NCBI GenBank assembly: GCA_902763185.1
Contig: CACWQT010000001.1
Coordinates: forward strand, 3,406-67,405
DNA length: 64,000 nt
Direction: 5' to 3'
DNA from: an uncultured Rhodospirillales bacterium
GTDB taxonomy: Bacteria > Pseudomonadota > Alphaproteobacteria > RF32 > CAG-239
Positions 13,691 through 34,598 of this stretch are shown piece after piece. The notes below the pieces were generated by a model. That model worked only from the letters and a program-made list of their open reading frames with translations. It made no database searches and was not told the DNA's origin. Numbering within the stretch: position 1 is the stretch's first letter; each line of letters begins with the position of its first letter. The position numbers were made by a program, and so were the translations under genes.

Positions 13691-15136
13691 ATGAGTAACA
13701 AACCACAAATTGAAGATGAAAGCGGTGATAAATATAAATTCGGCTTTATAACCGATATTGCCGCCGATGTCGCACCCAAAGGTTTAAGTGAAGATATTAT
13801 CCGCCTTATTTCAAAAAAGAAAAATGAACCAGATTGGCTTTTAGACTCAAGGCTTAGGGCTTATCGCCATTGGTTGACAATGACCGAGCCGACATGGGCA
13901 AAAGTAACCTATGATAAGATTGATTATCAGGATTTATACTATTATTCCGCCCCAAAACAGATCGTTAAGCCCAAGAGCCTTGACGAAGTAGACCCAAAAA
14001 TATTAGAAACATACAATAAATTGGGAATTCCCCTAAAAGAACAAGAAGCTCTTGCCGGCGTGGTAGCAGTTGATGCGGTGTTTGACAGTGTGTCGGTCGC
14101 AACTACTTATAAAGCACAGCTTAAAAAACAAGGAATTATCTTTTGTTCCATATCCGAGGCGGTTAAAGATTATCCCGATTTAGTGAAGCAATATCTTGGC
14201 TCGGTGGTGCCTTATACAGATAACTTTTTTGCTGCGCTTAATTCAGCGGTTTTTACCGACGGCTCGTTTGTGTATATACCCAAAGGCGTTAAATGCCCGA
14301 TGGAACTTTCCACCTATTTTAGGATTAATGCGCAAAATACCGGACAGTTTGAGCGCACATTGATTGTGGCTGATGAAGAGAGTTATGTTTCGTATCTTGA
14401 GGGGTGCACTGCCCCGCAAAGAGATGAAAACCAGCTTCATGCGGCAATTGTTGAGATTGTTGTTAAAAAAGATGCGGAAGTAAAGTATTCCACCGTGCAA
14501 AACTGGTATCCGGGGGATAAAGACGGCAAAGGTGGCGTATATAATTTCGTAACTAAACGCGCACTTTGTGACGGCGAAAATGCCAAAGTTTCGTGGACAC
14601 AAGTGGAAACAGGCTCTGCCGTTACTTGGAAATATCCATCGTGCGTCTTAAAGGGTGATAACTCTAAAGGTGAATTTTATTCAGTGGCCCTCACAAACAA
14701 TCATCAGCAGGCTGACACCGGCACAAAGATGATACATTTGGGCAAAAACACAACATCAAGGATTATCTCTAAAGGTATTTCTGCCGGATTTTCTGATCAG
14801 ACTTATCGTGGGCTGGTTAAAGTCGGCAAAAATGCGACAGGTGCGCGTAATTATTCGCAATGTGACAGCCTACTTATCGGGCAAACTTGCGGATCGCACA
14901 CTGTTCCGTATATAGAAAATGCCTGTAAATCTGCCATTTTGGAGCATGAGGCGACAACCTCAAAAATCAGCGATGAACAGTTGTTTTATTGCAAACAGCG
15001 GGGCCTTTCAGAAGAAGATGCCGTTAGCCTTATCGTCAACGGTTTTTGCAAAGAAGTGATGCAAAAGTTACCGATGGAATTTGCCATTGAAGCGGCAAAG
15101 CTGATAGATATATCGCTTGAAGGAAGTGTCGGTTAG
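13691..15136 (+). CDS. sufB: Fe-S cluster assembly scaffold protein SufB
   Basis: Full-length SufB-like sequence (...[21 protein letters not shown]...[19 protein letters not shown]...). The ATG at 13691 is preceded by AAGAGG. The ORF track starts earlier, at a TTG at 13634. Confidence 0.93.
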
Positions 15137-15269
15137 TTTCAAGGGCAAAATTTTGGTTAATGGTTTTTATTAAATAGAATCTATTTGCTTTTTAAAATCA
15201 GCTCGTTTAAGCTTGCGGCTGAAATTTATTACTATCTCTATATATGTTAAATTAAAAAAATTATTATTT

Positions 15270-15884
15270 ATGAACTCAGAAACAAAAACTTTAATTTTTA
15301 CTGGCAAGCACTTCAAAGACGAAGAAGTGTGTGATTATCTCATTCAGCATGACTACAAACTGCCTTTACCCCTGCTCTATCTTACAAAAGATGGGGGGCT
15401 GATAACCAGAGATTTTGAACCAACAAAGAAAGATAAACTGACTGCAATCTTGCTTGATGAAAATACAGTTGTTTATTTGAGAGCACTAAATAAGGAAATT
15501 TTCATGTTGATGTATGAAAATATGCCTGTTTATGATGTGTCGGAAATTAATGTTCAGGCTTGGGTCAAAAGTCAATTTACCAATTTTTTAAATGTGCGTG
15601 CTGCATCGGAAAAAGACATCGAATTGCTCGAAAAAAAGCGCTCTGATTTTTTTATCACTTTAGAGTGTCTGAGGCATTTTCATGTTGATGTTCCTAATCT
15701 TTCGCGCGGTTATCTCGGATGGATTGATAAAGGTGCCCACAATATCAGACACAGTCACGGTGAAGCGAGAATCTATTATTATCTCGAACATAATGGCGAC
15801 CTGCTCATATTTTCTAATTATTCGGAAAATGAACTGGTTAAGGCGGCTGTTCGTCATGACTTCTTTCAATCCGCAGAGCAATAG
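15270..15884 (+). CDS. Hypothetical protein (about 204 aa, no recognisable family)
   Basis: Intact ORF with its own terminator. It starts at the ATG at 15270 (MNSETKTLIF...). No signal peptide, TM helix or motif that I recognise. Confidence 0.5.
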   Translation: MNSETKTLIFTGKHFKDEEVCDYLIQHDYKLPLPLLYLTKDGGLITRDFEPTKKDKLTAILLDENTVVYLRALNKEIFMLMYENMPVYDVSEINVQAWVKSQFTNFLNVRAASEKDIELLEKKRSDFFITLECLRHFHVDVPNLSRGYLGWIDKGAHNIRHSHGEARIYYYLEHNGDLLIFSNYSENELVKAAVRHDFFQSAEQ

Positions 15885-28103: not shown

Positions 28104-29321
28104 ATGTTTAATGCCAATGATATAAGAAAAGACTTTCCGGCTCTGTCAAGATTGGTTGACGGCAGACGTAATACGTATATGGACACAGCGGCTTCCGCAC
28201 AAAAGCCTTTAGCTGTATTAAATCGTATTCAAAAGATGTATATTGAAGAATATGCCAATGTGCATCGTGGAAGTTATTGGCTTTCAGAAAGAGCCACGGA
28301 AAACTACGAAAGAGCTCGTCAAACGGTTGCTCAGTTTATCAATGCTAAAGATAAACGCGAAATCATATTTACCAGAAATGCAACGGAAGGTATCAATCTT
28401 GTTGCAGCAACTTGGGGGCAATATAATTTAAAAGCCGGCGATGAAGTGCTACTCTCTCGAGCCGAACATCATGCAAATTTGGTTACTTGGCAGCAATGGG
28501 CATTAAAAACCGGTGCAATTTTAAGGTATTTTGATTTAGCTGAAGATGGCAGCTTTATCTTTGAAAACTTCAAAAATGCCTTATCTGAAAGAACAAAAAT
28601 TGTAGCGGTTACGGCAATGTCTAATGTTTTAGGGACACTGTTTCCGGTTAAACAAATTTCGACAGAAGCACACAAAGTTGGCGCAAAAGTTTTGATTGAT
28701 GCCTGTCAGTTTGCCGTGCATAAAAAAATTGATGTTGCAGATTTTGATTGTGACTTTCTGGCTTTTTCAGGGCACAAGGTTTATGGACCGACGGGAATCG
28801 GCGTTTTATACGGCAAATATGATTTATTAGCAGAAATGTCTCCTTATCAGTTTGGCGGCGACATGATTGAGCACGTCAGCTATGATAAGACAACTTTTGC
28901 GTTGCCTCCGGCGCGATTTGAAGCAGGAACGCCTGCTATTGTGCAGGCTGTCGGTCTTGGTGCAGCTTTAGAATATGTTATGCAATACGATTTTAACGAT
29001 ATAGAGGCTTATGAAAAAGAGTTAATCAATTATACGACAGATAAGTTATCTAATATTCCCAACCTCAAGATTATCGGCACGGCGTCCGATAAAGGCGGCG
29101 TATTTTCTTTTGATATCAAAGGTATTCACCCTCAAGACTTGGCTTTTGTGTTAGGTAAAGAAGGTGTCGCTATTCGCACCGGTCATTTTTGTGCTGAGCC
29201 GATCGTAAACCTCTTGGGATATAATTCCTTAGCTCGCGCGTCACTTGGCATTTACACCACAAAAGAAGATGTTGATGAGTTTATAAACGCACTAAATAAA
29301 GCAATAAATTTTTTTAAGTAA
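28104..29321 (+). CDS. sufS: Cysteine desulfurase SufS (group II)
   Basis: PLP-lysine region FSGHKVYGPTGIGVLYG and the active-site Cys loop RTGHFCAEP. Confidence 0.92.
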   Translation: MFNANDIRKDFPALSRLVDGRRNTYMDTAASAQKPLAVLNRIQKMYIEEYANVHRGSYWLSERATENYERARQTVAQFINAKDKREIIFTRNATEGINLVAATWGQYNLKAGDEVLLSRAEHHANLVTWQQWALKTGAILRYFDLAEDGSFIFENFKNALSERTKIVAVTAMSNVLGTLFPVKQISTEAHKVGAKVLIDACQFAVHKKIDVADFDCDFLAFSGHKVYGPTGIGVLYGKYDLLAEMSPYQFGGDMIEHVSYDKTTFALPPARFEAGTPAIVQAVGLGAALEYVMQYDFNDIEAYEKELINYTTDKLSNIPNLKIIGTASDKGGVFSFDIKGIHPQDLAFVLGKEGVAIRTGHFCAEPIVNLLGYNSLARASLGIYTTKEDVDEFINALNKAINFFK

Positions 29322-29327
29322 GAAAAA

Positions 29328-29783
29328 ATGAGTGATACGGTTAAACAAAATACAGCTGAAGAGTTGAATGATTTAGACGATGTTGAAGCGCAACTTCTCT
29401 CAGCCATGAGTATTGATGATACGGAAGAATTGCCTGTTTATAAAGCATGCGCGGGTAGTAATTTGAGTAACAATACAGCTCTTGCTGAAATGCATGATAT
29501 TGTGGAAGCACTTAAAACGGTTTTTGACCCAGAAATACCTATCAACATTTATGATTTAGGCTTGATTTATAAAATAGACCAACAAGATAACGGTGACATT
29601 CATATTGATATGTCACTTACAGCTCCCGGTTGTCCCGTGGCCGGAATTTTACCACAACAAATTGCTGATGCCGTGGCAACAATTGATGGCGTCGGCAAAG
29701 TAGATGTAGAAGTTGTTTGGGAACCTGCATGGAGCATTGAACGCTTAAGCGAAGATGCTAAAATGATGTTGGAAATGCTTTAG
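29328..29783 (+). CDS. DUF59 / SufT-like Fe-S assembly protein
   Basis: VFDPEIPINIYDLGLIY ... SLTAPGCPVAG, typical of the MIP18/SufT family. There is an acidic N-terminal extension. Confidence 0.8.
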   Translation: MSDTVKQNTAEELNDLDDVEAQLLSAMSIDDTEELPVYKACAGSNLSNNTALAEMHDIVEALKTVFDPEIPINIYDLGLIYKIDQQDNGDIHIDMSLTAPGCPVAGILPQQIADAVATIDGVGKVDVEVVWEPAWSIERLSEDAKMMLEML

Positions 29784-29793
29784 GGAATACACT

Positions 29794-30201
29794 ATGCAAA
29801 TAGATGAATTAATTGATAATTTTTCTTTTTTTGATGGATGGGAAGATAAGTATAAATATTTAATTGAGCTCGGAAATAAGCTTCCGCATTTGTCTGATGA
29901 TAAAAAAACCGCAGAGTGGAAAGTCCCCGGTTGCCAATCGCAAGTCTGGATAATCCCTCACTATGAAAAGCAGCATATTTATTTTGAAGGTGACAGCGAT
30001 GCCATTATTGTGCGTGGTATCATTGCAGTTGTTTTTATTATTTTTCAAGATAAGTCTGCACAAGAAATTTTAAATATTGATGTTGAAGAAATTTTTGATA
30101 AACTGGGATTGAGGGATAATATTACGCAAAACAGGCGTAGCGGTATGCTCTCTATGGTTGATAAAATTCGGTATTATGCCACTCAATCTTTGGGAAAGTG
30201 A
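29794..30201 (+). CDS. sufE: Cysteine desulfuration protein SufE
   Basis: SufE length and the sulfur-acceptor motif VPGCQSQVWI. Confidence 0.88.
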   Translation: MQIDELIDNFSFFDGWEDKYKYLIELGNKLPHLSDDKKTAEWKVPGCQSQVWIIPHYEKQHIYFEGDSDAIIVRGIIAVVFIIFQDKSAQEILNIDVEEIFDKLGLRDNITQNRRSGMLSMVDKIRYYATQSLGK

Positions 30202-30202
30202 T

Positions 30203-31411
30203 ATGAATATTTATGAATATCAGGCAAAAGGTATTTTCAAAAAATTCGGAGTAAATGTGCCCAGTGGCTTGATTGCCTATACGCCTATGGAAGCACAAAA
30301 TGTTGCCCAAAAATTATCCCCGGAGGGCCCATGGATTGTTAAGGCGCAGGTACGTGCAGGGGGACGTAATATTGGTAAATTTATGGATAAGCGTGCCGGT
30401 AAAAAAGGCGGTATTCGCCTTTCTAAAACACCTGAAGAAGTTTATAACAATGCAGAAGAAATGATAGAAAACAGGCTAATTACAGCACAAACCAGTAACA
30501 GAGGGATGTTGGTTAGCCGCGTTTATATTGAAGAGTATATTAAAACTTTTCAAAAATTTTATTTTAGTTTAGTTGTTAACGGCGCCACCGCTTCAGTGAT
30601 GTTGCTTTTAGCTCCTGTTACCCCAAACGGTGATGATGATATTGTAGAAATGGCGACACATATGCCTTCTCAAATACTAAAAATTGATTTAGGCTTTGAG
30701 AAATCTATTCATGCGGAAGCTCTTTCTCGAATTGCAGATTTTATGCAATTCCACGGCAAAAAATCACAGCTGAAATCTTTTATTAACAAGCTCTTAGATA
30801 TTTTTTACAATTACGATGCCACAAAATTAGAAATAAACCCTATCGGTATTGATAAAAATGACACTCTATGGGCTCTGGACGCCAAAATTATTTTTGATGA
30901 TAATGCTCTTTATCGCCATCCCGATATTCTGCGCCTGCGCCCTATGGCAGAAATTGAAGAAAGAGAAGTTGTGGTTGCAAAATTCGGTTTTGATTACAAG
31001 GAATTAAATACCGGAATCGGTATTATTACCAATGGTAACGGCGTCGCCTTAAATATCATTACAGAAGCGCAAAAATGTGATGCGGATATTGCCTGTTCTC
31101 TTAATATCAAAGGTGGTGTTGACAGAGATAAAATTGCTGCCAGTATTAAGCTTATTATGACAAACCCCAGTGTTGACGGTATTTTTATTGATATTGTCGG
31201 CGGGTTCACGCGGTGTAATCTTGTTGCCGATGGAATTATTGCGGTGGCAAATGATTTAGGATTAAACATTCCGATTGTGGTGAGATTTGAAGGAACAAAT
31301 AAAGATGAAGCCGTTAATATTCTTAATGCTTCTCAGTTGCCAATTCAAATTGCAGACAGCACTTATTCGGGGATAATGCTTGCTAAAGCAGCCATAGCGG
31401 AGGACTTATAA
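30203..31411 (+). CDS. Succinyl-CoA ligase beta-subunit-like protein (divergent ATP-grasp)
   Basis: MNIYEYQAKGIFKKFGV..., VKAQVRAGGR and LEINPIG resemble SucC. An insertion follows AGGR, and NGAGLAM is replaced by NGNGVAL. The start lies 1 nt after the sufE stop. The ORF track starts earlier, at 30158. Confidence 0.7.
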   Translation: MNIYEYQAKGIFKKFGVNVPSGLIAYTPMEAQNVAQKLSPEGPWIVKAQVRAGGRNIGKFMDKRAGKKGGIRLSKTPEEVYNNAEEMIENRLITAQTSNRGMLVSRVYIEEYIKTFQKFYFSLVVNGATASVMLLLAPVTPNGDDDIVEMATHMPSQILKIDLGFEKSIHAEALSRIADFMQFHGKKSQLKSFINKLLDIFYNYDATKLEINPIGIDKNDTLWALDAKIIFDDNALYRHPDILRLRPMAEIEEREVVVAKFGFDYKELNTGIGIITNGNGVALNIITEAQKCDADIACSLNIKGGVDRDKIAASIKLIMTNPSVDGIFIDIVGGFTRCNLVADGIIAVANDLGLNIPIVVRFEGTNKDEAVNILNASQLPIQIADSTYSGIMLAKAAIAEDL

Positions 31412-32277
31412 TGGCGGTTCTGGTTGATAAAAATACAAAAGTTATCGTTCAGGGGATTACCGGAACACAAGCCTCTTTCCATACCCCAAGGGCTATCCAA
31501 TACGGTACTAAGATTGTTGCAGGCGTTGTGCCTAATAAAAAGGACAATATGCATTTGGGTATTCCCTTATTTAATACTGTTAAAGAAGCCAAGCAAAAAA
31601 CTGGTGCGACTGCCTCTATGGTGTTTGTTCCGGCTCAATTTGCAAAAGCAGCCATTTCAGAAGCTATCGATGCCGATTTAGAATTGGTTGTCGCTATTAC
31701 TTCCGGAATTCCTGTCAGTGATATGCTGGAAATCAGGCAAAAACTAAAAAACTCAAAAACTATTCTTATCGGACCAAATACACCGGGGATTATAACACCT
31801 CAAGAGGCTTATATGGGAACTTACCCTGATAATATTCATAAATCCGGCGATATAGGGATTATTTCCCGTTCTTCAACACTTACTTATGAAGTCGTTTTAG
31901 AAATAAATAAGGCAGGGTTCGGCGAATCTACGGTTGTCGGCTTGGGGGATGACCTTATTATAGGCACCGGTTATACTGAAATTATCAAAAAATTTAATGA
32001 AGACAAAAAAACAAAGGCAATTGTCCTTATCGGCGGGAGCCAAGGAAGTCATGAAATAGAGGCCGCAATCGCGTATCGAAAAATAGCTAAAGCAAAACCG
32101 ATTATTGCTTTAATGATAGATAAACCGTTATCTTTTTCTGAAAACGACAGTTTGGCTTCAGAAATTTTATGTGGTGGTGTCACGTCAACTGCAGAAAAAA
32201 AGCAACTTCTAAAAGAATCTGGAATAACTGTTGTGGACAGCCTAAGTGATTTAATTCATGAATTATCAAAACTATGA
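31411..32277 (+). CDS. Succinyl-CoA ligase alpha-subunit-like protein lacking the catalytic histidine
   Basis: VDKNTKVIVQGITGTQ, SRSSTLTYE and GPNTPGIITP match SucD. In an ungapped alignment with E. coli SucD (from memory), the MGHAGAI segment reads DSLASEI (His to Leu) and GEIGG reads GGSQG. A TAATG overlap couples it to the upstream gene. Confidence 0.7.
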   Translation: MAVLVDKNTKVIVQGITGTQASFHTPRAIQYGTKIVAGVVPNKKDNMHLGIPLFNTVKEAKQKTGATASMVFVPAQFAKAAISEAIDADLELVVAITSGIPVSDMLEIRQKLKNSKTILIGPNTPGIITPQEAYMGTYPDNIHKSGDIGIISRSSTLTYEVVLEINKAGFGESTVVGLGDDLIIGTGYTEIIKKFNEDKKTKAIVLIGGSQGSHEIEAAIAYRKIAKAKPIIALMIDKPLSFSENDSLASEILCGGVTSTAEKKQLLKESGITVVDSLSDLIHELSKL

Positions 32278-32996
32278 TACGTTGGCTAAAGAAGTTTATT
32301 AATTTAATTTTACCACCGCGTTGTTTAATCTGTGGCAAGATTATCGAAAACGATAATGCATTGTGTCCGGAGTGCTTTAACCATATCACTTTTATTACGA
32401 AACCTTATTGTTTACATTGCGGAAGACCGCTCTCTTTTACAAATTTAGATAAGGATTTATGTTGCCCTAAATGTTTAACTAAAAAAGATTCTGTTTTTTA
32501 TTTATCTCGTTCTGCAATTGAATATGATGAATATTCTAAAAAGCTTATTTTAGATTTTAAGTTCTCTGACCATCTTGAAAACAGATATTTACTTACTCAA
32601 TGGCTTATTTTTGCTGGAAAAGATATTTTTGATACCCATCCCGATATTATTCTGCCTGTCCCATTACATTATTCAAGATTATTTCAGCGTAAGTATAATC
32701 AATCTGCTATTTTAGTGCGTGAATTATCCAAGAAAACCCATATTCCCGCTTATTATAATATCTTAAAAAAATGTCGCTACACCAAACCGCAGGTTATTTG
32801 TAACGGCAAACAGCGACGCAAAAATATTAAAGATGCTTTTATAATCACAAATCCCGATTTTGTAAAAAATAAAAACATCATTTTGGTTGATGATGTTTAT
32901 ACAACCGGTTCTACCCTAAAAGAGTGTGCCAAAGTGCTTAAAAAGTGTGGTGCCAAGAATATCAGCACATTAACTGTTGCCAGAGTTATCGAATAA
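32274..32996 (+). CDS. comF: ComF family protein (phosphoribosyltransferase-like, N-terminal zinc ribbon)
   Basis: CxxC...CxxC N-terminus and a C-terminal PRT motif ILVDDVYTTGSTL. Confidence 0.85.
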   Translation: MIRWLKKFINLILPPRCLICGKIIENDNALCPECFNHITFITKPYCLHCGRPLSFTNLDKDLCCPKCLTKKDSVFYLSRSAIEYDEYSKKLILDFKFSDHLENRYLLTQWLIFAGKDIFDTHPDIILPVPLHYSRLFQRKYNQSAILVRELSKKTHIPAYYNILKKCRYTKPQVICNGKQRRKNIKDAFIITNPDFVKNKNIILVDDVYTTGSTLKECAKVLKKCGAKNISTLTVARVIE

Positions 32997-33000
32997 ACGA

Positions 33001-33231
33001 TTATTTTTGCATTGAAAGCAGTTTTGTATATTTTTGCAAGATACACTCAGCAATCCCCGAAAGTTCCCTTGCTTCTGTTAAATCAAAAAAGCTTCCTTCA
33101 ATAAGCATATCAGGCGTTAATTCAAACACATCACCGCTAAAATCTTTTACGCAGAATTTTTTGCCTTTGGTTTCGATCACACTCTGCCGAATTGTTTCTG
33201 TTATTTCATCAGGTTTCTTTTTCATAGGCAT
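33001..33231 (-). CDS. Hypothetical small protein (76 aa)
   Basis: ORF 9 nt downstream of tolC on the same strand. No recognisable motif, and its coding status is uncertain. Confidence 0.35.
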   Translation of the reverse strand: MPMKKKPDEITETIRQSVIETKGKKFCVKDFSGDVFELTPDMLIEGSFFDLTEARELSGIAECILQKYTKLLSMQK

Positions 33232-33239
33232 TAACCTTT

Positions 33240-34598
33240 TTATTTTTTAATATCCGTGGACAACCATTTGCCGCTTGTTTCTTTATATTTAGCATTTGCA
33301 TCATATAAATCAACCTTTAAATTCAAATCTTTAGCGGTTAATTTACCCATTTCCTGAAGAAGCGTTAACCCTGCCACATAATAATCGTGACGTGTGGTTA
33401 CTTCTTCCACCTTAGAATTTAACAGATATTGATATTGGTTTAACACATCTAAAACCGTTCGATTACCTAAAGATTCTTCTTCGCGAACACCATCTAAAGC
33501 GACTTTGTAAGCTTTTGTTTGCGCTTCAACTGAACTTATTTTGGCTTTATTTGCGCATAAATATTCCCATGCTTTTGTTAAGCCGGAATGTAAGGCATCC
33601 TCGGTATTAAGCAAATCTTCTTGTGCTTGCCAACGATAATACTTACTTTGACGGATTTTGGCTCGGCTGGAACCTGCGTTGTATATCGGCATACTGAAAT
33701 TTACACCCAATTCAACATCATTGCTGGTCGGATTTTTTTCATACATATAGTTCTCTGATTTTATTCTGCCTGCTTTAGCATAAGCATTAACAGAAGGCAA
33801 CAGTTCTCCTTTATTAGTGCTTACATCATATTTTTTGGCTTTTAAATTATGTCTTGCGGCTTGTAATTCATAGCTATGGTCTTTGGCATAATCAAATGCT
33901 TCTTCCAGACTTTTGGGGAATAATTTTTCGATATTTTTCGGGTCGCTTAAATTTTTAGGCTCAACACCTATTACCTGCTTATAAATAGCCTGCGAAGCTT
34001 TTAGATTACCCTCTGCGGATATTCTCTGTGATTGGGCAGAGGCATAGCTTGCTTTTGCTTGTGACACGTCAGTTGTAGTTACTTCCCCTACCTTAAAGCG
34101 TTCATTTGTTTCATCCAGTTCTTTTTTCAGTAATTGTTCATTGTTTTTTTGCAACTTAACAATTGCTTCGTCTTGTAAAACATCTAAATAAGCCCGTGCT
34201 GCTTGCAATAAAACATTTTGCTCAGTTGCCATTAAAACGGCTTGAGAAGCCTTTGCATAGCTCTTGGCTGATTTTACGGAATTTACGGTTTTGAACCCGC
34301 TAAATATCGGTTGGGAAATGGTTGCCGTTAATGAACGATTATACCCATCAGTCGGCCTTATCGGTGCATTAGTATTTATTTTTGTATCTGAATACCCGCC
34401 ATCAACAGATAATTTGGGACGATACCCTGATTTTGCAATCGCAACATTTTCATCTGTAGCCTGTGTTCCGGCGCGTGCCGCCTTTAATGAGGGGTTATAT
34501 TCATATGCTTTTGTTAAGGCGTTTTCTAAAGTATCTGCAGAAGCAGAAATTGCTGTCAGTAGTGTGATTATAAATGCTGCTATGTTTTGTCTTTTCAT
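33240..34598 (-). CDS. tolC: TolC family outer membrane channel
   Basis: Signal peptide. The start of the mature protein, TLENALTKAYEYNPSLKAARA, and the two-repeat architecture are typical of alphaproteobacterial TolC. Confidence 0.9.
   Translation of the reverse strand: MKRQNIAAFIITLLTAISASADTLENALTKAYEYNPSLKAARAGTQATDENVAIAKSGYRPKLSVDGGYSDTKINTNAPIRPTDGYNRSLTATISQPIFSGFKTVNSVKSAKSYAKASQAVLMATEQNVLLQAARAYLDVLQDEAIVKLQKNNEQLLKKELDETNERFKVGEVTTTDVSQAKASYASAQSQRISAEGNLKASQAIYKQVIGVEPKNLSDPKNIEKLFPKSLEEAFDYAKDHSYELQAARHNLKAKKYDVSTNKGELLPSVNAYAKAGRIKSENYMYEKNPTSNDVELGVNFSMPIYNAGSSRAKIRQSKYYRWQAQEDLLNTEDALHSGLTKAWEYLCANKAKISSVEAQTKAYKVALDGVREEESLGNRTVLDVLNQYQYLLNSKVEEVTTRHDYYVAGLTLLQEMGKLTAKDLNLKVDLYDANAKYKETSGKWLSTDIKK

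Follow-up and report, generated by a model that had tools for sequence, protein, structure and literature searches.

A SucCD-derived protein pair without the phospho-histidine, encoded between sufE and comF in RF32 Alphaproteobacteria

We analyzed a stretch of 64,000 nucleotides (the window) from an uncultured Rhodospirillales bacterium of the GTDB order RF32, family CAG-239 (assembly GCA_902763185.1, contig CACWQT010000001.1, positions 3,406 to 67,405 of the forward strand). Directly downstream of sufE, the window encodes a SucC-like and a SucD-like protein, homologues of the β and α subunits of succinyl-CoA synthetase (SCS), which almost certainly do a job other than that of SCS. The SCS reaction appears to have been lost because other residues have taken the place of the catalytic histidine and of its glutamate partner in the α subunit, and the helix ends that bind phosphate are changed as well. 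Judged from the sequences, the canonical phospho-histidine mechanism is impossible in this pair. Both genes are under purifying selection like their housekeeping neighbors and are not decaying. We propose, at about even chances, that the pair has been repurposed as a partner of SufE, in the form of a complex that binds a ligand or uses ATP.

The catalytic histidine and its glutamate partner

The nucleotide and CoA sites of SCS lie far apart and are bridged only by a swinging phospho-histidine loop, and Glu208α and Glu197β serve the phospho-histidine at its two stations. Among the Foldseek matches of the SucD-like protein, PDB titles describe this loop in both positions. When the SucD-like protein is aligned with E. 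coli SucD using phmmer, the segment GKRMGHAGAII falls, without gaps, on ENDSLASEILC, and GEIGGS falls on GGSQGS. Leu248 is thereby placed at the phospho-His246α position and Gly209 at the Glu208α position. The same register is given by a MAFFT alignment of 61 sequences, which represent E. coli, 14 further alphaproteobacterial families, the sister family within the order and, from the family of the window itself, its own genus (27 sequences) and other genera (18 sequences). The original prediction had read the phospho-histidine as leucine and the glutamate segment GEIGG as GGSQG, and the two alignments agree with it on both counts. Glu197β is retained; it is also the generic ExN residue of ATP-grasp enzymes.

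At position 246, His is found in 14/14 of the other alphaproteobacterial families; the sister family has Tyr there, as do 18/18 sequences from the remaining genera of the family. Within the genus of the window, 27/27 aligned sequences have Leu, Ile, Val or Asp at this position (Leu 20, Ile 4, Val 1, Asp 1), and all 43 genus mates that were searched have Leu, Ile, Val or similar. At position 208, every canonical sequence has Glu; the lineages with Tyr at 246 have Gln, Arg, Ala or Thr, and 27/27 genus mates have Gly. We looked for a histidine at the catalytic position under pairwise and multiple alignment, and no alignment gives one. A shift in register does not rescue it, because the only histidines past residue 143 of the SucD-like protein, H214 and H283, are in non-conserved columns; nor does the 61-sequence alignment contain a conserved replacement His in the C-terminal half. 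A register shift or a substitute His is therefore ruled out by the agreement of the pairwise and multiple alignments. A cysteine that is invariant in the genus, Cys254α, was also considered as a functional residue of the whole family and rejected, as it is Thr or Ser in the Tyr-type genera.

The phospho-His is also absent from six full-length SucD-like cluster representatives outside the order (P0160, P0183, P0190, P0211, P0248 and P0259), which have Gln, Tyr, Phe, Asn or Glu in its place. Its loss in SucD-like proteins seems, from these sequences, to have arisen several times. A genome scan made to see whether the P0183 lineage likewise lies next to sufE returned only canonical relatives, with at most 46% identity.

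Remodeling of the pocket and retained ligand-site residues

To describe the extent of change, we took the positions near-invariant among canonical enzymes and counted those that both lineages of the order retain. Only 1/13 such positions is retained in the phospho-His loop, compared with 27% in the β C-terminal domain, 44% in the β ATP-grasp domain and 48% in each α domain. Position numbers in the β subunit follow E. coli SucC; the sequence used for this fits the canonical set well in the alignment and puts Lys46, Glu197, Asn199 and Asp213 where they are known to be. Many of the changed positions are not relaxed but fixed to a new residue across the order. These are G20A, C123T, G154S, G179D and A249D/E in the α subunit, and A266D (D/E/N across the order), N285C, D288N, G290K, A293V and T294D in the β subunit. 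Three motifs are changed order-wide: GIGGDP to GLGDD, NGAG to NGDG and ANFLDVGGGAT to ACFLNVKGGVD. Numbered as in the window proteins, the new residues include Asp180 and Glu251 of the α subunit and Asn279 (the A266 column), Cys298 and Lys303 of the β subunit. The distribution of cysteines is also altered. The α subunit lacks five that are conserved in canonical enzymes, and the β subunit has an order-wide new Cys at position 285 and retains Cys325.

In SCS structures, the phosphoryl group is held by two helix ends, α 153–155 and the turn formed by β NGAG, and the β GGG loop lines the succinate/phosphate site. Neither the helix ends (α S153-G154-T155 and β N-G-A-G) nor the β G-G-G loop keeps its canonical form. 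Acidic side chains appear from the alignments to occupy the phosphate-binding places.

Other ligand-binding elements are preserved in part. In the CoA-binding Rossmann domain of the α subunit, Q13, G14, T16, G17, Q19, P40, V72, P73, N122, P124 and G125 are retained, and with them the motifs QG.TG.Q, P40, VP and GPN.PG; Cys123 is Thr and Gly20 is Ala throughout the order. The β ATP-grasp domain retains K46, R54, E99, E197, N199 and D213. Counted over the nucleotide and Mg ligands Lys46, Arg54, Glu99, Glu107, Asn199 and Asp213, five of six are kept. Gly53β is Ala or Ser.

The β subunit also carries a 10-residue insert after Arg54β, in the glycine-rich loop, with the consensus N-x-G-K/Y-F-x-E/D-K-x-A across the order. 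The alignments contain both this insertion after AGGR and the altered glycine-rich loops, as originally described. The insert is probably older than the loss of the His, because a homologous insert (EKGFFKEEKA) is found in G027, a relative from another family that has a His-bearing SucD and a canonical pocket. We therefore ruled it out as part of the change that accompanied loss of the His. G027 is the nearest outgroup in the SucC tree, with a support of 88% that was not starred in the Shimodaira-Hasegawa-like approximate likelihood ratio test (SH-aLRT). In this genome (locus L078, G027:C120:4400-11300) the glycine-loop residues of SucC are odd (AEER), SucD has the His together with a Gly17 to Glu change, and sufE and comF are not within 3 kb of sucC and sucD. 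The G027 SucCD may represent an intermediate form.

Family, fold and selection

Both proteins are full-length homologues of the SCS subunits, collinear with SucC and SucD. The SucC-like protein matches PDB SCS β chains over its full length (E=2e-59; E=5e-57 to the E. coli β chain), and residues 3–283 of the SucD-like protein match residues 2–281 of E. coli SucD (2nu8_A, phmmer, E=4e-78). The NCBIfam models for SucC and SucD cover the two proteins over their whole length, with scores under all their curated cut-offs: 325 vs 370 bits (NF001913) and 308.5 vs 375.55 (TIGR01016) for SucC, and 318.1 vs 353.2 bits (TIGR01019) and 313.1 vs 336 (NF004230) for SucD. A single-chain AlphaFold2 (AF2) model of the SucD-like protein, built with 30 family members, has the SCS α fold, with Foldseek TM-scores of 0.86–0.87 to 2SCU and 1JKJ. 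By Pfam, phmmer and AF2/Foldseek, the pair thus has the two-subunit architecture and the fold of SCS. The motifs quoted for the two proteins in the original prediction are all present in the translations. The top Foldseek match of the SucD-like protein is 9a6e_B, an integrative model of a GatB-SucD complex, and so canonical SucD has been modeled in complex with a protein outside the tricarboxylic acid (TCA) cycle.

A maximum-likelihood tree of SucD groups all members of the order in one clade, nested among alphaproteobacterial SucD (SH-aLRT 99%, stem of 0.5 changes per site), and the genus of the window is a derived clade within it (SH-aLRT 100%, stem 0.63). The SucC tree is concordant, with stems of 1.33 for the family clade (28 rows, the sister-family row excluded) and 0.84 for the genus; both trees are quick searches for which support is given by SH-aLRT only. 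The simplest history would comprise two bursts of change, a single replacement of His by Tyr in the ancestor of the order and a later one of Tyr by an aliphatic residue in the genus of the window. The signature G20A, C123T, G154S and G179D is found in only a handful of 50%-identity clusters among 1.84 billion cluster representatives.

One open, full-length copy is present in each of the 150 genomes of the order that have a match. Compared with a 96%-identical metagenomic relative (dS ~0.55), sucC and sucD have ratios of nonsynonymous to synonymous substitution rates (dN/dS) of 0.041 and 0.031, respectively; the values for the neighboring lpxD, sufS and sufE are 0.018, 0.044 and 0.034. Two more distant comparisons give 0.04–0.08. 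The expectation of a pseudoenzyme or a different chemistry is supported: the two substitutions are genuine, they are conserved, and purifying selection acts on them.

Metabolic context

The host genome is 1.58 Mb in size and estimated to be 100% complete. A search for canonical sucCD elsewhere in it found no second sucC or sucD; the pair in the window is the sole copy. We also did not find in this genome the 2-oxoglutarate dehydrogenase E1 subunit (sucA), SdhA/FrdA, citrate synthase, DapD, a CoA-transferase of the AcetylCoA_hydro type or family I, or methylmalonyl-CoA mutase. Across the order, sucA is found in 0/61 high-quality genomes from 16 genera. An ordinary SCS would have been the natural reading of a sole sucCD in a genome with an otherwise complete TCA cycle; here the sucCD is indeed the sole one, and the rest of the cycle is missing.

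One frame for pyruvate:ferredoxin oxidoreductase (PFOR; 1184 residues) and two acetate/acyl-kinase genes were located (G000:C13:14086-14778, C4:26455-27627 and C8:72184-73362). The host looks like an anaerobic, Fe-S-dependent fermenter with no visible source or use of succinyl-CoA, in which ATP formation from acetyl-CoA is already covered by PFOR and the two acetate kinases. We asked if the pair could be the partner of PFOR in substrate-level phosphorylation, as in a hydrogenosome; this is unlikely, given the two acetate kinases and a succinate CoA-transferase that was not found in the genome.

Linkage to sufE and comF

The pair lies in a run of genes on the same strand: rseP, bamA, lpxD, fabZ, sufS, sufT-like, sufE, SucC-like, SucD-like and comF (Table 1). 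The TGA stop codon of sufE (30199-30201) is followed after one base by the ATG of sucC, the sucC stop and sucD start share TAATG (31409-31413), and the sucD stop overlaps the comF start by 4 nucleotides (ATGA). The one-nucleotide gap and the TAATG overlap had been noted before and are both seen in the DNA. Between 27900 and 33400, promoter-like matches (24, vs 18.5±4.3 in shuffled sequence) and terminator-like matches (5, vs 4.2±2.1) are not above expectation, which fits a single transcription unit.

Table 1. Positions in the window of the genes around the SucCD-like pair and of the altered segments within it.
Feature	Position	Strand	Evidence or remark
sufS	28104..29321	+	sole SufS-like cysteine desulfurase found in genome; Pfam Aminotran_5 on L079 orthologue; single tblastn match
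sufT-like (DUF59 / FeS_assembly_P)	29328..29783	+	open reading frame; PF01883 on orthologue
sufE	29794..30201	+	active-site motif VPGCQSQVW; PF02657 on orthologue; single tblastn match in genome
SucC-like β subunit, 402 aa	30203..31411	+	ATP-grasp_2 (6.9e-46) and Ligase_CoA domains (Pfam)
Insert NIGKFMDKRA after Arg54β, residues 56-65	30368..30397	+	10 residues, glycine-rich loop; conserved order-wide
β segment ANFLDVGGG to ACSLNIKGG	31094..31111	+	N285C is residue 298, G290K is residue 303
SucD-like α subunit, 288 aa	31411..32277	+	CoA_binding and Ligase_CoA domains (Pfam)
α pocket changes G154S (SRSSTLTYE) and G179D (GIGGDP to GLGDDL)	31873..31950	+	order-wide
Gly209 codon at Glu208α position	32035..32037	+	phmmer, 61-sequence alignment
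Leu248 codon TTG at phospho-His246α position	32152..32154	+	phmmer, 61-sequence alignment
comF-family gene, double zinc ribbon and phosphoribosyltransferase	32274..32996	+	last member of conserved block

We compared 20 loci that represent 15 genera and the sister family, and 20/20 have sufE-sucC-sucD-comF in unbroken order. Outside the genus of the window, 1–4 kb of variable cargo separates sufT from sufE, often on the opposite strand, and the flanks differ; in those genera, therefore, sufE starts the unit. The original prediction had placed the pair in a sufS-sufT-sufE operon. Its link to sufE, extended to comF, is conserved, whereas the direct join to sufS and sufT is specific to the genus. 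These genes are unlinked in other alphaproteobacterial families, three complete genomes of which have sufE, sucD and comF more than 90 kb from one another. From this we infer that the block was assembled within the order and has probably been kept together since. Conserved co-location with a suf gene under selection, one of the marks by which we would recognize a Suf accessory factor, is thus found for the pair.

By eye, the frames in the cargo resemble GNAT, VanX, M20 peptidase, glutamine-amidotransferase and EamA proteins. A recurring spacer pair in loci L041-L053 consists of a GNAT-like frame of 225–240 residues and a VanX/D-Ala-D-Ala-dipeptidase-like frame of 210 residues; other spacers between sufT and sufE hold an M20-peptidase-like gene and a GNAT-like gene of 241–268 residues on the opposite strand. 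Downstream of the block, a small minus-strand gene of 74–99 residues with no Pfam match is called between comF and a TolC-like gene in close relatives (putative sites: window 32945-33250, L079 7591-7815, L080 6774-7073, L081 4848-5111). In G057, a genome of the same family (genus g24; 50 contigs, completeness rated at 100%), none of SucD, SufE and ComF has a match. We considered it as a natural knock-out and found it uninformative, as the block could be lost entirely or simply be missing from the assembly.

The Suf genes of the host lie in three loci: sufB at 13691-15884, ~14 kb upstream; sufD-sufC at C1:138645-140612, ~100 kb away; and sufS-sufT-sufE described here. The genes sufC and sufD are together in 12/12 genus mates, with the same split. 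Their presence rules out that the SucCD-like pair replaces a missing SufC and SufD. By tblastn, sufS and sufE are single-copy in the genome. Since sufS and sufE have no second copy and sufB and sufC-sufD are encoded elsewhere, the SufE encoded here is the housekeeping sulfur carrier and must also serve SufBCD.

Discussion

In the reading that we favor, a repurposed complex working with SufE, the pair would have kept its binding of a nucleotide and of a CoA-type ligand, and it would be produced at a constant ratio to SufE and ComF. The complex would be a ligand-dependent accessory or regulatory partner of the SufS-SufE sulfur route. For example, CoA or acyl-CoA and ATP status might be coupled to sulfur delivery for Fe-S proteins such as PFOR. 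Several observations weigh against this proposal. The evidence for a link to SufE consists of gene order and translational coupling. Because comF is always in the block, the true partner could be ComF rather than SufE. About half of the near-invariant positions of the canonical CoA domain are changed. Glu107β, invariant in canonical enzymes, is Lys in 25/26 sequences of the genus and Ile, Thr, Cys or Leu in sister genera, and nucleotide binding may therefore be altered or lost. The AF2 model is moderate (pLDDT, the predicted local distance difference test score, of 75) and poor in the pocket loops 124–141, 181–184 and 239–256. Finally, a new fixed pocket together with intact ATP-grasp Mg ligands fits new catalysis at least as well as passive sensing.

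The main alternative, conceivable if unlikely, is that the pair carries out a new chemistry rather than sensing a ligand. The ATP-grasp domain would use ATP, and the rebuilt pocket beside the CoA site, formed by Asp179 and Asp/Glu249 of the α subunit and Asp266, Cys285, Lys290, Asp294 and Cys325 of the β subunit, would be a thiol or persulfide active site fed by the SufE cysteine. The output would be a CoA-linked sulfur species, or the carriage of iron or an Fe-S cluster. In keeping with this idea, the pocket residues are newly fixed across the order and not relaxed, Cys285β was gained order-wide and Cys325β kept, five α cysteines were lost, the Mg and phosphate ligands of the ATP-grasp domain are retained, and coupling to sufE is tight. 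A-type Fe-S carriers (SufA/IscA/ErpA, PF01521) were also not found in 7/7 genomes of the genus. However, Nfu-type (PF01106) and Mrp/ApbC-type (PF10609) proteins are present in the genus and leave no gap to be filled by a carrier, and many anaerobes of the control set likewise have no A-type carriers. The proximity of the new residues in one pocket is a prediction from sequence, with low pLDDT in the loops, and position 246α varies from Tyr to Leu, Ile or Val within the order, unlike a catalytic constant. A more specific form of this chemistry is an ATP-dependent sulfur enzyme or Fe/S carrier, in which the SufE persulfide would pass to Cys298 of the β subunit, next to the retained Cys338, in an acid-rich pocket beside a CoA-type thiol, and would yield a CoA-linked sulfur species or a cluster for delivery in bacteria without A-type carriers; we think this rather improbable.

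We are just as doubtful of a function unrelated to sulfur, in which the pair would be a partner of ComF or have a moonlighting structural role and its adjacency to sufE would be an accident. In 20/20 loci comF is a neighbor of the pair no less constant than sufE, and it shares 4 nucleotides with sucD. G057, the sole genome of the order in which no SucD match was found, has no sufE or comF match either, as if the block acts as a unit. On the other hand, the block was assembled in this order from three unlinked genes and survived the shuffling of its surroundings; unless selection favors the joint expression of sufE and the other three genes, this is difficult to account for.

Very little speaks for a pair that has remained an acyl-CoA synthetase, acting on succinate or a different acid, and that works without a phospho-enzyme or through another residue. 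The pair is the only one of the SCS family in the genome, it retains the CoA fold and the ATP-grasp ligands, and databases name the members of its clusters succinate--CoA ligase. But there is no conserved replacement His, Leu, Ile or Val cannot carry phosphate, and without the His of the phospho-histidine loop the nucleotide and CoA sites would stay unbridged. Acidic residues stand at both phosphate-binding helix ends, a producer or consumer of succinyl-CoA was not found, and acetate kinase covers ATP formation. That the genes are decaying relics heading for loss is scarcely credible: although scores are below the NCBIfam cut-offs and the proteins evolve somewhat faster than their neighbors across the genus (60–69% identity, vs 82–91% for bamA, fabZ and glgP), reading frames are intact in all 150 matching genomes, dN/dS is 0.03–0.08 in three comparisons, and the new residues are fixed order-wide.

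Comparison with SucCD (EC 6.2.1.5; 1SCU, 2SCU, 1JKJ and 2NU8, and the GTP-dependent SCS of pig and human) shows the same two-gene layout, fold and full-length homology, the CoA Rossmann motifs and the ATP-grasp residues Lys46, Arg54, Glu99, Glu197, Asn199 and Asp213. The pair descends from within alphaproteobacterial SucCD. Unlike SucCD, it lacks His246 and Glu208α, has altered helix ends (α G154S and β A266D), reads GLGDD for GIGGDP and NVKGGVD for β DVGGGAT, and scores below the NCBIfam cut-offs. It is encoded between sufE and comF rather than beside mdh or sucAB, in genomes without a TCA cycle. We conclude that the pair should not be filed as succinate--CoA ligase; it does not conform in His246, Glu208, the helix ends, the cut-offs or the metabolic context.

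A precedent for the retention of such a fold is found in the Pat acetyltransferases, where an acyl-CoA-synthetase-like domain without the catalytic His binds acetyl-CoA at ~0.3 micromolar and controls the enzyme; in Pat/PatZ the domain is retained as an acetyl-CoA sensor and oligomerization module (PMC8556138). The Pat domain belongs to the same superfamily as the pair; Pat chains also turn up as weak matches when the SucD-like protein is compared with the PDB. In contrast to the Pat domain, which is fused to GNAT, the pair consists of stand-alone proteins of 402 and 288 residues with no GNAT domain, derives directly from SucCD, is linked to sufE and comF, and has a ligand-binding capacity that is predicted only. 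A SufE-type carrier encoded beside an ATP-using partner outside the SufBCD scaffold is known from CsdE-CsdL (TcdA). CsdL differs in being an E1-like protein with no homology to the pair, and the SufE described here is the only copy. A literature search found no papers on a His-less SucCD or on a link between SufE and SCS, and a search on RF32/CAG-239 yielded community surveys only.

The current database name gives reconstructions of these widespread uncultured Alphaproteobacteria of the gut and rumen a TCA step that cannot occur. The pair is a natural case of an enzyme of central metabolism that was kept after its pathway was gone, with loss of the catalytic residue in two steps, new residues that became fixed, and a genetic link to the only sulfur carrier that the cell has for Fe-S assembly. 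If the link to SufE is functional, the pair would be a new Suf accessory factor, in a system whose regulation and iron and sulfur fate are incompletely understood, and would provide a tractable two-protein system for studying how pseudoenzymes gain new roles.

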